A DNA stretch of 32,000 nucleotides from the NCBI GenBank assembly GCA_964373795.1, contig CAYJVY010000001.1, positions 71,537-103,536 on the forward strand. The letters run 5' to 3'. Below the pieces are notes generated by a model. It worked only from the letters and a program-made list of their open reading frames with translations. It searched no databases and was not told the origin of the DNA. The position numbers and the translations under genes were made by a program. This DNA comes from an uncultured archaeon. Lineage in GTDB: Archaea; Iainarchaeota; Iainarchaeia; Iainarchaeales; DATDZZ01. Positions 21,489-29,845 of this stretch are shown piece by piece. Every line of letters starts with the position of its first letter. Within the stretch, counting starts at the first letter, position 1.

Positions 21489-21502
21489 GTTTTAGGCACC
21501 AG
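21489..21502 (-). repeat. Motif copy A: CTGGTGCCTAAAAC (minus strand)
   Basis: Plus strand reads GTTTTAGGCACCAG. It lies 5 nt upstream of the ATG of the 46-aa ORF. Confidence 0.8.
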
Positions 21503-21556
21503 AATTGATTTAAATATATTCTTTTCTCCTCTAAAAAAAAGGAATTTAAAGGAGAG

Positions 21557-21571
21557 ATTTTAGGCACCAGG
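21557..21571 (-). repeat. Motif copy B: CCTGGTGCCTAAAAT (minus strand)
   Basis: Plus strand reads ATTTTAGGCACCAGG. It lies 69 nt upstream of copy A and 42 nt downstream of the tRNA-Lys 3' end. Confidence 0.8.
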
Positions 21572-21613
21572 ATACTAAAATAATAAAAAGATTGAAGAAT
21601 TCCTGGTAGAAAA

Positions 21614-21687
21614 CGAGCCTGGGGGGATTTGAACCCTCGACACACGGCTTAAAAGGCCGCTGCTCTACCAGGCTGAGCTACAGGCCC
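21614..21687 (-). tRNA. tRNA-Lys(UUU), intron-less
   Basis: Minus strand reads GGGCCTGTAGCTCAGCCTGGTAGAGCAGCGGCCTTTTAAGCCGTGTGTCGAGGGTTCAAATCCCCCCAGGCTCG. 7-bp acceptor stem, D arm GCTC/GAGC, anticodon loop CTTTTAA, T loop TTCAAAT. Confidence 0.9.
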
Positions 21688-21743
21688 GTTATAAAGGAAA
21701 TAGGTTAACGAAAACAATTTATAACTAATTGTTGAAACAAGAA

Positions 21744-23027
21744 TTATTTTTTTACAGTTAATTCTTTTAATCCATTCATGTAAGGATGTAAAGCCTTTGG
21801 AATTTTAACACTTCCATCCTTTTGTTGAAAGGTTTCCAAAATAATTCTTAAAACTCTGGAAGTAGCAATCATTGTATTATTTAAAGTGTGAACAAATTCT
21901 TTTTCTCCATTCTTTTTCCTGAATTTAATGTTAGAGCGAACTGCTTGATATGAAGTGCAGTTACTGCAACTCATTAACTCAATAAATTTTTCTTCCCTAG
22001 GAGAAAAACCTTCAATGTCATATTTTTTTGCAGCAATAGATCCAATGTCTCCAGTGCAAACATTTACAACTCTATAAGGAATTTCAAGTTTTTGAAGCAA
22101 TTCCTCAGAGTTTTTAAGCAATTCTTCATGCAACCTCCAAGAATCATTTGGATGGCAAAGAATTACTTGTTCAACTTTATTAAATTGATGAACTCTAAAC
22201 AAACCTCTTTCATCAATTGAATGCTTGCCAATTTCTTTTCTAAAACACGGAGACAAACCAGTTAACTTAATTGGAAGCACTTCTTCAGATAAAATGTCAT
22301 TAGAATAAAGAGAAACTAATGGATGTTCTGAAGTAGCAATCAAAAACAATTCTTCTCCTTCAATTTTGTATAAAACCTCTTTAAAGTAATTTAAATCAGT
22401 TACTCCTTCGTAAGCCTTTTTTCGCAGCAGGAAAGGAGGTTCAATAAAAGTAAAACCTTTTTTTAAAAGCAAATCAATTCCAAATCTCTGCAAAGCCAAA
22501 TCAAGCAAAGCAATATCTCCTTTCAAATAATAAAATCCTGAACCAGAAACTTGAACTGCTTTTTTAAAATCAGCTCCTCCAAGTCTTTCAGCTAATTCTC
22601 CGTGATGAAGCAAATTAAAATCGGATTTAACTGGTTTGCCATGAGTTTTCACTACAACATTTTCAGAATCATCTTTTCCAATTGGAACAGATTCATGCAA
22701 AATATTTGGAATCCTCATTAAATAAAAATTAATTTGCTCTCTTAAAACATTTTGACTTTCCTCTAAATCCTTAATTCTAGAAGGTAATTCCTTTGCTTCT
22801 TGAATTAATTTTTTAGCATCCTTTTTCTGCTTTAAAAGAACCTCGATTTCTTTGGTTAAATCATTTCTTTTCTTTCTAAGAGACTCGGTTTCTTGAAGTA
22901 ACAACCTATATTTTTCATCCTTTACAAGCAAATCCTTTATCCAAGGAAGTTTCTCTAAATCATTTCTTTTCCTCAAATCTGCTTCAACAAGAACAGGATT
23001 TTCTCTAATAAACTTAATTTCAAGCAT
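21744..23027 (-). CDS. serS: Seryl-tRNA synthetase (bacterial-type)
   Basis: 427 aa. N-terminal coiled-coil arm. Class II motifs: LTGLSPCFRKEIG...GLFRVHQFNKVE (motif 2) and NNTMIATSRVLRIILE (motif 3 region). Confidence 0.9.
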   Translation of the reverse strand: MLEIKFIRENPVLVEADLRKRNDLEKLPWIKDLLVKDEKYRLLLQETESLRKKRNDLTKEIEVLLKQKKDAKKLIQEAKELPSRIKDLEESQNVLREQINFYLMRIPNILHESVPIGKDDSENVVVKTHGKPVKSDFNLLHHGELAERLGGADFKKAVQVSGSGFYYLKGDIALLDLALQRFGIDLLLKKGFTFIEPPFLLRKKAYEGVTDLNYFKEVLYKIEGEELFLIATSEHPLVSLYSNDILSEEVLPIKLTGLSPCFRKEIGKHSIDERGLFRVHQFNKVEQVILCHPNDSWRLHEELLKNSEELLQKLEIPYRVVNVCTGDIGSIAAKKYDIEGFSPREEKFIELMSCSNCTSYQAVRSNIKFRKKNGEKEFVHTLNNTMIATSRVLRIILETFQQKDGSVKIPKALHPYMNGLKELTVKK

Positions 23028-23095
23028 TAAATCACTGAAATTTATATACAGAATGTAATTACATAAATATTAATAAGCAATTCTAAGGAACAAAA

Positions 23096-27837: not shown

Positions 27838-28422
27838 TTACAAAAACTGTTCGTATTTTTCATTATTAAATTTATATATGAATCTCTTAATTTTTTTTTC
27901 ATTAAAAGAATATTTATTTATTATTTGGTTTTTTTCACCAATAAATTTTTCAAATTCGAATTTCTGCATTGGATCAAGTATAATAAATTGACTTTTATAT
28001 TCAGTTGTTATAATTGAGTGAGTTGAATAATTTTCTAGTTCACAAATAACTATTTCAGCATTTTTATCCCCCAAGTAAAGCATTATACTGCACATCATTA
28101 CTGAGATATCTTCGTCGTCTGCTATCTTGTTTTTTAAAATATCTTTTGCGTCTAGCCAATAATTTAAATCAAACCCTATTTTGACGAAATTTATTTCACT
28201 TATGATGAAATCATAACATTTTTTTAATACAAGTAAATAATATTTGTCAAACTCGTATTTTTCTGGTTTGAATTGCTCAACAAAAGACTCAATAGTTAAA
28301 TCATTTTTATTGATTAAAGATTTTATTTCTCCAACCGTTTTTTTTTCATTTTCATTAATCAATTTTTGGTATTTTTTTAGTAAGGTTTCATACAAAATTA
28401 TTTTTTTTTCATTTTCATCCAT
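27838..28422 (-). CDS. Hypothetical protein with a transglutaminase-like Cys-His-Asp pattern
   Basis: 194 aa. ...DDEDISVMMCSIMLYLGD...NYSTHSIITTEYKSQFIILDP gives Cys, His and Asp in the order and spacing seen in transglutaminase-like cysteine peptidase cores. Motif-level evidence only. Confidence 0.4.
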   Translation of the reverse strand: MDENEKKIILYETLLKKYQKLINENEKKTVGEIKSLINKNDLTIESFVEQFKPEKYEFDKYYLLVLKKCYDFIISEINFVKIGFDLNYWLDAKDILKNKIADDEDISVMMCSIMLYLGDKNAEIVICELENYSTHSIITTEYKSQFIILDPMQKFEFEKFIGEKNQIINKYSFNEKKIKRFIYKFNNEKYEQFL

Positions 28423-28424
28423 AA

Positions 28425-29732
28425 CTATAACTCGCTTTTTAGTTCGATTTTTTTATTTAAAAATTCAATTGATTTTTCTTCAATAGTTTTTTTTGTAACA
28501 ATTATTTCATCACCCATTTTTTCAATTCTTTTCTTGTTTTCTGTTAAATTGTTTTCCTTTTCCTTTAATTCATTTTCAATTTCTTTTAATTCTTCGTTGA
28601 GTAAATTTATTTCTTTTTGTATTGATATATTTTCTATTCTTTTTTCAATCACTTTTTTTTCTACCTCAACTTCATTTAACTTCCAAAATATCTCAGTGAA
28701 AAAATCATATTTTTCAATTTTTTCAATTTCTTTTAACTTTTTTTCTTTTTCCACATCATTTAAGTTAATCGATTTTAATTCAATTGCTTTTTTTGTTTCT
28801 TTTAAAATGTTTTTTAGTAAATCTCCTTTCAAATCACTTTTTATGGCATTTTCAGAGTTATTTAAATAAAATTCAAGTATTTTTTCTTCTTCAGGTTTTA
28901 AAAAATATTTTTTTGATTTAATTAGTTTTTGGAGTTTTGTTAGTATTTTATTTATTGGGGCAAGTATGTCGACAAGTTTTTGCTTTATTTCTGTTTCTTT
29001 TTGAATTGTTTTTGTTGTTTTTTCTTCTAATTGTTTTAATTCAATTGCTTCGGGGTTTGAATTCTTTTCTTCCATTTCCTTTCTTTTTTTTTCTTCCTGT
29101 TTTTGGAGGTAATTAATGCAGGTTTCCAACTCTATTATTTGCTTTTCTTTTTCTTTTTTTTCTTCGATTTTTTGTTTTAAATTTAAAATGTTTAGTTCGA
29201 CTTTTTTTGTTTTAAATATTTCGCTGTTTTCGAATATTTGTTTTAATTCATATGTGCAATCATTTAATTCCTTTATTTTATTCCCTACCTCTTTTACTTC
29301 TTTTTTAATTAAAGCGTTTGTTATTACAATATTTTTCCAAAAAGAGGCCAACTCGTTTGAAATTATTCCATTTGAATTAATGCAGTACTCTTGAACTATT
29401 TCTAAATTTTCAGTTGTTGGAGGGTTTAATTTTTTTATTAATGCTTTTAAATGCATTGAAAAGTGGTCTTTGTTTGTTTGAACAATTTTTCTTAATTTTT
29501 GACTTCCCTCAGTTGTAATTAGGTCTATTTTTTCAATTTCCTCTCTAATTTTGTTTAATTCATTTAATAAGTATTTTATTTCACTGAATTTTTGGAAAAT
29601 GGTTTTCTTTAACTCTGTTTCTTTCACTGACTTTTTCTCTGCAATTTTTCCAGCTAATTCTGTTAAATTTAATTTTATTATTTCTTCTTCTTGTGTAAAA
29701 AATTTTTTAATAAATCCAAACATAACTTTCAA
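28425..29732 (-). CDS. Long coiled-coil protein (435 aa)
   Basis: K/E/I/L/N-rich heptad-like sequence throughout. It ends 2 nt before the start of the transglutaminase-like gene, so an operon is likely. Confidence 0.5.
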   Translation of the reverse strand: MKVMFGFIKKFFTQEEEIIKLNLTELAGKIAEKKSVKETELKKTIFQKFSEIKYLLNELNKIREEIEKIDLITTEGSQKLRKIVQTNKDHFSMHLKALIKKLNPPTTENLEIVQEYCINSNGIISNELASFWKNIVITNALIKKEVKEVGNKIKELNDCTYELKQIFENSEIFKTKKVELNILNLKQKIEEKKEKEKQIIELETCINYLQKQEEKKRKEMEEKNSNPEAIELKQLEEKTTKTIQKETEIKQKLVDILAPINKILTKLQKLIKSKKYFLKPEEEKILEFYLNNSENAIKSDLKGDLLKNILKETKKAIELKSINLNDVEKEKKLKEIEKIEKYDFFTEIFWKLNEVEVEKKVIEKRIENISIQKEINLLNEELKEIENELKEKENNLTENKKRIEKMGDEIIVTKKTIEEKSIEFLNKKIELKSEL

Positions 29733-29783
29733 TATATATTTTATTCAATGAATTTATAACTTAATTTTAGAGTTTTCTACTAA

Positions 29784-29798
29784 CCTGGTGCCTAAAAT
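29784..29798 (+). repeat. Motif copy C: CCTGGTGCCTAAAAT (plus strand)
   Basis: Identical 15-mer to copy B but on the opposite strand. Confidence 0.8.
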
Positions 29799-29830
29799 AT
29801 GTTTCTTTTTTCCCTCTGAGAATTTGTTTT

Positions 29831-29845
29831 CCTGGTGCCTAAATT
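29831..29845 (+). repeat. Motif copy D: CCTGGTGCCTAAATT (plus strand)
   Basis: It lies 47 nt downstream of copy C and 50 nt upstream of the ATG at 29895. Confidence 0.8.

Follow-up and report, generated by a model that had tools for sequence, protein, structure and literature searches.

Four copies of a short motif as predicted operator sites of a 46-residue protein in an uncultured DPANN-type archaeon

The stretch of DNA analyzed here (the window, 32,000 nucleotides of contig CAYJVY010000001.1) originates from an uncultured DPANN-type archaeon. It carries four copies of a short asymmetric motif, organized as two outward-facing pairs around an 8.3-kb block of genes. Based on sequence comparison, these four copies are predicted to be operator sites of a 46-amino-acid (aa) protein encoded beside the left pair, a reading to which we assign a probability of roughly two in three. 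The protein is homologous to the N-terminus of IS1634-family transposases, and the motif accompanies genes of its family in unrelated genomes. The repeat is real and functional-looking.

Organization of the Four Repeats

The 12-mer CTGGTGCCTAAA is present in exactly four copies within the 32-kb window, against none expected: 100 dinucleotide-preserving shuffles did not return a single match. This confirms the claim of an earlier note on this DNA that the recurrence is beyond chance. A search with the 13-mer, allowing up to two mismatches, recovered only the same four sites. At three mismatches, 11 sites were obtained versus 5.0 expected, the surplus matches being near chance and random-looking. 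The 13-mer was first described as exact in all copies. This is correct for the copies B, C and D (CCTGGTGCCTAAA), but not for copy A (TCTGGTGCCTAAA), in which the first base is a T instead of a C, leaving 12 of 13 positions identical.

Copy A is located on the minus strand (21491-21503; 12-mer at 21491-21502), with its last base 7 nucleotides (nt) before the ATG of the 46-aa open reading frame (ORF). This is the promoter-proximal site, and its GTGCCTAA core begins at position -16 from the ATG. The distal site, copy B (minus strand, 21559-21571; 12-mer at 21559-21570), has its core at -84 and lies 41 nt downstream of the tRNA-Lys gene (21613-21688), which adjoins the left pair. Copies C (29784-29796; 12-mer at 29785-29796) and D (29831-29843; 12-mer at 29832-29843) are found on the plus strand, within a divergent intergenic region. 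Measured from start to start, B is placed 68 nt upstream of A, and D is placed 47 nt downstream of C.

The copies are in direct orientation within each pair, and the two pairs are mutually inverted. Both are directed outward, to the 46-aa ORF on the left and to a 175-aa ORF on the right, so that the nested geometry is as previously described. B and C are indeed identical as 15-mers (CCTGGTGCCTAAAAT), while A and C have 18 of 19 nt in common (CTGGTGCCTAAAAYATGTT), ATGTT included. The 12-mer is perfect in four copies out of four and the flanks have diverged, which suggests selection on the sites.

The 46-aa ORF and Its Protein Family

The proposed cognate DNA-binding protein, MSFVRKKVIHGQIYYYLVESHWTSNGARQRVVKYLGKAENLKPFMK, is encoded on the minus strand at 21343-21483, with its ATG at 21483 and its stop at 21343. 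An exhaustive HMMER search identified 115 homologous cluster representatives at E<=1e-3, nearly all of them matching via the first ~40 residues. A profile of this domain retrieved 975 proteins, mostly standalone “hypothetical proteins” of 45-80 aa without a Pfam domain, and hundreds of the standalone members are 45-75 aa long. Their hosts are mostly DPANN archaea and candidate-phyla bacteria. The family consensus reads M.F.R.K.IKG..Y.YLVE......RQKV.KYLG, and all seven invariant residues (R5, K7, Y14, Y16, Q29, Y34 and G36) are kept in the window ORF. Judged by its sequence, the 46-aa ORF is a real member of this family.

In longer members, the domain is fused to an HNH nuclease, an AbiEii nucleotidyltransferase or J-domains; the first two fusions are what is typically seen with modules that target nucleic acids. 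No model for the domain was found in Pfam, NCBIfam or PHROGs, and the literature searched contains no description of the domain function or of the motif. Structure prediction with AlphaFold2, based on a 100-sequence alignment, gives a confident fold (predicted local distance difference test score of 91.7) made of three antiparallel strands followed by a helix. Foldseek searches against PDB and BFVD revealed no significant structural relative, the best matches being weak, such as the PC4 single-stranded-DNA-binding domain (TM ~0.64).

A tblastn search of PLSDB with the family consensus matches residues 1-41 of annotated IS1634-family transposases. Reciprocally, the transposases of two plasmid-borne elements, L065 (Acidiphilium pACRY01) and L066 (Rhodococcus pR1CP1), match the window at 21361-21483 (E=4e-4 and 0.02, in a small database). 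These matches in both directions identify the 46-aa ORF as a homologue of the transposase N-terminal domain that stands alone. Searches with the same two transposases detected no DDE similarity or transposase remnant anywhere in the window, and no convincing terminal inverted repeats were found around either pair. By sequence, the ORF belongs to the homology group of the N-terminal domain of these DDE transposases, which are related to IS4, and is not an insertion sequence (IS): a catalytic domain is lacking, and the sites point outward and do not form element termini. The ends of IS1634 elements have been described as poorly conserved (PMC2266710), and neither the domain nor the site is mentioned there.

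The Motif Beside Family Genes in Other Genomes

The GTGCCTAA core is expected only ~0.002 times per 200-nt upstream segment. In front of the family genes, it is observed twice in the window, twice at locus L025, four times at L029 and once at L063. L025 is situated on a contig of 53% GC, where the homologue P0273 is followed by a 175-aa Phage_integrase ORF, a truncated tyrosine integrase. Two direct TAGTGCCTAAC copies extend to within 1 nt of the ATG; four further copies, one of them inverted, are present within 900 nt. At L029-L033, the homologue P0316 (53 aa; a Candidatus Woesearchaeota protein according to its NCBI name) is encoded at the head of an operon with a 539-aa non-transposase gene. 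Four direct TAGTGCCTAA copies are located at most 130 nt upstream of this family gene. The homologue at L063, P0136 (64 aa, 62% identity to the window ORF), is part of an actual IS: its gene precedes and overlaps a 532-aa DDE_Tnp_1 transposase gene, and both lie inside 22-nt terminal inverted repeats. Here, one TAGTGCCTAA is found just before the ATG, well inside the IS and separate from its termini. The family gene of L027, a GC-rich viral contig, is followed by a large serine recombinase and preceded by a variant (TGTAGTGCCCTACA) that is arranged as an inverted pair.

The position of the core is fixed, with a start at exactly -16 relative to the ATG in three loci (the window, L029 and L063). 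A second core is present at -84 in the window and at -82 in L029. When the three loci are aligned, they have a common architecture consisting of a TATA-like box, 1-5 nt, the 12-mer, 7 nt and the ATG. In the family loci, the motif is directed toward the gene it precedes. An autoregulator is expected to have its site with its own gene, in unrelated genomes and at a conserved position. The core precedes the family gene in the window and at L025, L029 and L063, and all of these but L025 have it at -16.

The window contains 27 other gene upstream regions, and none of them carries the motif. Its presence beside family genes elsewhere and its absence from these regions point to a specific operator and not to a general promoter element, which the earlier note had named as an outcome that would speak against recombination sites. 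The proposal that the copies are a shared operator of a small regulon gains support and becomes more precise, since in unrelated genomes the core is found with homologues of the 46-aa ORF and keeps its place in the promoter. The winged helix-turn-helix protein and the Xer protein, proposed earlier as partners for an electrophoretic mobility shift assay, are less likely binders than the 46-aa protein itself.

Repeats are also present beside the transposase genes of the two plasmid-borne elements. In the IS1634-family element L066, the related GTGTATTACCTA precedes the ATG by 3 nt and recurs as an inverted copy directly behind the stop codon. L065 carries direct AAAAATGT(G)TAGTRRCAACA copies both upstream and downstream of its transposase ORF. 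These inner repeats adjoin the transposase ORF and are distinct from the outer terminal repeats; judging from their sequence and placement, they may be binding sites of the N-terminal domain.

Similar sequences were observed in phage contigs of IMG/VR. Eight of them (L045, L046, L047, L049, L051, L058, L059 and L061) contain non-coding direct tgTAGTGCCTAAA pairs, 19-44 nt apart, and the pair of L046 precedes a serine-recombinase-like ORF. Two others, L043 and L055, have an origin-like organization, in which an AT-rich stretch is surrounded by numerous TAGTGCCTA copies, both direct and inverted. No member of the 46-aa family was detectable in the fetched pieces of these phage contigs.

Promoters and Predicted Regulation

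On the minus strand, a TATA-like box (TATATTTAAAT, 21508-21518) is situated 5 nt upstream of copy A. From this position, the mRNA of the 46-aa ORF would have a very short leader or none at all, with a transcription start that is predicted from the box. The TATA-like boxes of the other 27 upstream regions lie ~25-35 nt before the ATG, and the sequence suggests that this genome has many leaderless or short-leader mRNAs.

The physical binding of the 46-aa protein is predicted to occur at an asymmetric site, N[TC][AG]GTGCCTAA. In the protein's own, probably leaderless gene, copy A separates the TATA box from the start codon. Once bound there, the protein would block the recruitment of RNA polymerase, and the sign of the regulation would be negative, as in autorepression. 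Copy B may provide a second, possibly cooperative, site. Such an arrangement resembles archaeal repressors such as MDR1, LrpA and Phr, whose binding sites lie in the interval from the TATA box to the transcription start and which prevent the recruitment of RNA polymerase. The corresponding interval, from a TATA-like box to the start of what is probably a leaderless gene, is occupied by copy A in the window and by the equivalent copies in L029 and L063, and the gene concerned is that of the predicted regulator itself. MDR1, LrpA and Phr differ in being winged helix-turn-helix, Lrp-type or metal-dependent proteins with dyad sites, whereas a 46-residue beta-sheet domain with an asymmetric, directly repeated site is predicted here.

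The 171-nt intergenic region containing the pair C/D separates two divergent genes. On its left, a coiled-coil gene is encoded on the minus strand (28425-29723; 432 aa from the ATG at 29723, a 432/435-aa product). On its right, a candidate target operon (plus strand, 29895-31492) is composed of the gene of a 175-aa signal-peptide protein (29895-30422, ATG at 29895) and a polyprenyl synthase-like gene that overlaps it (30419-31492). The TATA-like box of the coiled-coil gene (minus strand, 29752-29760) is ~24 nt away from copy C, and that of the 175-aa gene (TTTTTAAG, plus strand, 29865-29872) is preceded by copy D at ~20 nt. The pair would bring the secreted-protein/prenyl-synthase operon under the control of the 46-aa protein; the coiled-coil gene may be an alternative or additional target. 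At ~20-25 nt upstream of divergent TATA-like boxes, C and D would have a position more typical of activation or promoter occlusion. The inverted layout around 8.3 kb would then correspond to two regulated transcription units facing opposite ways.

Two GTG codons within the motif open longer frames. The one inside copy B (21566) starts a reading frame which runs in frame into the 46-aa ORF and yields the 74-aa gene-caller product P0121. The other, inside copy D (29835), opens a 195-aa ORF in frame with the downstream ATG-started ORF. Both GTG-started frames are probably a start-site artefact. A Shine-Dalgarno or start-region element, or a coding repeat, was also considered as the origin of the motif and rejected: only A and C have a GGTG placed 8 nt ahead of an ATG, the frames opened by GTG in B and D differ from that in A, and this placement was judged incidental.

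Several observations weigh against an operator function. The link between family and motif is based on three independent loci besides the window. The motif was not found at the intra-operon family gene located behind a large gene (L034-L040), nor at two GC-rich family loci (L026 and L028). Since the modeled structure has no significant relative, a mode of binding to double-stranded DNA is only predicted for the 46-aa protein. The positions of C and D relative to their promoters differ from that of copy A, so that the regulatory logic given for them is tentative. Finally, the phage TGTAGTGCCTAAA pairs come without a family gene in the fetched pieces, and another protein may read such sites.

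Alternative Explanations

The homology to transposases allows another view of the origin of the sites. They could be relics of two decayed IS1634-like elements, as solo left ends that do little or nothing today. In this case, the pairs would be former promoter/operator regions of elements whose transposase has been lost, the 46-aa ORF would be a surviving 5' piece, and the right side would retain the operator and a start-codon stub of 6 codons (ATGTTTCTT...). Besides the homology of the protein to IS1634 transposase N-termini, this is in agreement with L063, where operator and small ORF are part of a genuine IS that has a 532-aa DDE transposase and is bounded by 22-nt terminal inverted repeats, and with the similarity of A and C at 18/19 nt including ATGTT, as if C were the stub of a second copy. 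However, the window preserves neither a DDE transposase remnant nor convincing terminal inverted repeats beside either pair. A perfect 12-mer between diverged flanks suggests selection, and the ORF is intact, with all invariant residues, in a family with hundreds of standalone 45-75-aa members. The small gene of L029 moreover heads an operon with a non-transposase gene. Relics without function are considered rather unlikely for these reasons, and as the relic view concerns origin, it is compatible with a present regulatory role.

The earlier note also raised the possibility that the copies serve recombination, making the 8.3-kb block an invertible, shufflon-like segment. On this view, they would be sites of recombination or synapsis on which the Xer-like recombinase or an external transposase acts, with the 46-aa protein as an accessory or arm-type factor. 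The sites are inverted around the segment (A and B on the minus strand, C and D on the plus strand), as in the shufflon of R64 (Rci/sfx) and the Hin/hix and FimB/E invertases, in which short inverted repeats surround a segment associated with a recombinase gene. Between the pairs lies the Xer-like gene (26304-27146; Pfam Phage_integrase, E=1.9e-45). It had been called the only tyrosine recombinase; this holds among the ORFs scanned in and beside the block, while the rest of the window was covered by inspection of the ORF list only, with no other recognized. The domain of the family is transposase-derived, and family genes adjoin a truncated tyrosine integrase (L025) and a large serine recombinase (L027). 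The shufflon sites of R64 are asymmetric too.

The anatomy of the sites nevertheless speaks against inversion. A recombinase core site has two arms and a crossover spacer, and the four copies have neither a second inverted half-site nor a spacer structure in common: only the asymmetric 12-13-mer is shared. AT-rich inverted flanks are spaced by 11 to 21 nt among the copies, and the flanks differ. The dyad and core-site organization of Xer/dif, hix and Fim-type sites is thus lacking. An archaeal dif site, the substrate of XerA, is a single imperfect palindrome of ~28 bp (11-6-11). It was rejected here, as the motif is not palindromic and occurs in four copies. In other genomes, the motif is tied to the small protein and not to a recombinase: at L029 and L063 it occurs without a tyrosine recombinase nearby and without an inverted partner, only direct copies being present, and none of the homologue loci fetched has inverted pairs around a block. 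Contrary to the geometry of transposon ends, the sites point away from the block. Tn7- or Mu-like ends, with inward sites and a transposase inside, were rejected on the same ground and because the block encodes no transposase.

The cargo of the block also argues against this possibility. It consists of housekeeping genes, namely tRNA-Lys, serS, trm56, tfe and tRNA-iMet, including essential tRNA, aminoacyl-tRNA synthetase and transcription-factor genes. The only DNA of the same species that was retrieved consists of two short Logan contigs (L022 and L023; ERR3478686). They are identical to the window and match its junctions, though they are too short to decide, neither spanning a full pair. Taken with the site anatomy and the setting in other genomes, an invertible segment appears improbable.

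An action of the motif as RNA is more improbable still. The GGUGCC cores of a pair would base-pair via G-U wobbles, forming a hairpin in a 5' leader or small RNA, and the minimum-free-energy folds of both pairs do join these cores (z = -2.4 for B-A). The C-D folds, in contrast, reach a z of only -0.35, Rfam matches none of the sequences, and the homologous sites read AGTGCC, which is not self-pairing, and occur in 1, 2 or 4 copies. Membership in the C/D-box RNAs, the H/ACA RNAs or another Rfam family was rejected, since there were no matches and only the two tRNAs reach the threshold.

Other candidates were dismissed as well. A general promoter element does not fit, as the distance from TATA box to motif varies between the copies and the 27 other upstream regions lack the motif. 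A tRNA fragment or attachment-site duplication is not supported, the extended alignment of the two loci scoring mainly via the 12-mers. On inspection, origin recognition boxes of a replication origin were discarded: no Orc1/Cdc6 gene is adjacent, and the pairs are 8.3 kb apart and do not flank a short AT-rich unwinding element. A satellite or CRISPR-type array was considered too. All 18 tandem-pair matches of a metagenome scan proved to be unrelated satellites or tandem arrays, and no tandem pair was found in a viral collection.

Relation to Known DNA-Binding Modules

The predicted operator system resembles, by analogy, an archaeal autorepressor-operator pair and truncated transposase regulators, and is a member of neither family. 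IS1 InsA and the Tn5 inhibitor are truncated or N-terminal transposase products that act as regulators. Like them, the 46-aa protein is a DNA-binding module of a mobile element which stands alone, with sites overlapping a promoter, although its binding is predicted.

The AP2/integrase-type beta-sheet DNA-binding domains are common to homing endonucleases, integrases and transcription factors. The 46-aa domain is similar to the AP2 and integrase N-terminal (Int-N) domains in its predicted topology, in which a helix comes after three strands and the junction carries a (Y/W)LG motif, and HNH fusions are known in both groups. Compared with AP2 and lambda Int-N, the likeness is topological only: Foldseek gave no significant match, and hhalign comparisons with manually entered sequences were negative.

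Genomic Setting and Neighboring Features

The window has a GC content of ~30% and encodes an intein-containing RadA, RPA, class II LysRS, SerRS, Trm56 and TFE besides the Xer-like recombinase. The nearest relatives of its SerRS (L001-L003 and L024) show 62-68% identity and originate from Diapherotrites/Woesearchaeota metagenome-assembled genomes, GW2011_AR10 among them. There is no synteny with these relatives, so the intergenic regions are not comparable.

To the left of the 46-aa ORF, the minus strand at 21061-21260 contains a probable multi-intron tRNA-Phe(GAA), as judged from its sequence, which was missed by ARAGORN and by the Rfam gathering search. Its 3' half (21061-21102) shows the anticodon loop CTGAAGA, the T-arm and the acceptor TCTTCCC-A. 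The candidate 5' exons are GGGAAGGTA (21252-21260), GCTCAGCCTG (21203-21212) and GAGAGCACACGA (21148-21159). When spliced in silico, the sequence is recognized by ARAGORN as tRNA-Phe(GAA). Just downstream of this putative tRNA gene, three tandem G+C-rich hairpin-like units (CAGCCGGCGTGGCTGA and variants) are present on the minus strand at 20960-21050. The RadA recombinase gene (minus strand, 679-4656) encodes a product of 1325 aa, and inspection suggests that the extra length is due to two large inserts with intein/homing-endonuclease features.

Significance

A broader interpretation, for which the chances are about even, extends the operator reading to the whole family. It would represent ~1000 clusters of mini transcription factors of 45-75 aa, mostly in DPANN archaea and bacteria resembling the candidate phyla radiation, domesticated from the N-terminus of IS1634. 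One site, (T)[AG]GTGCCTAA, would be used across distant hosts, and in the window it would define a two-locus regulon with the secreted-protein/isoprenoid-synthase operon.

If true, this would assign a function to ~1000 “hypothetical” mini-proteins, and the DNA-binding domain and recognition sequence of IS1634-family transposases would be identified. It would also add to the cases in which the DNA-binding module of a mobile element has been recruited for cellular regulation. With a protein of 46 residues and a predicted operator of 10-12 bp, the system is directly testable using a synthetic peptide and oligonucleotides. How DPANN archaea regulate their genes is almost uncharted, and such a portable protein-operator pair would offer a handle on gene regulation in their uncultivated members.

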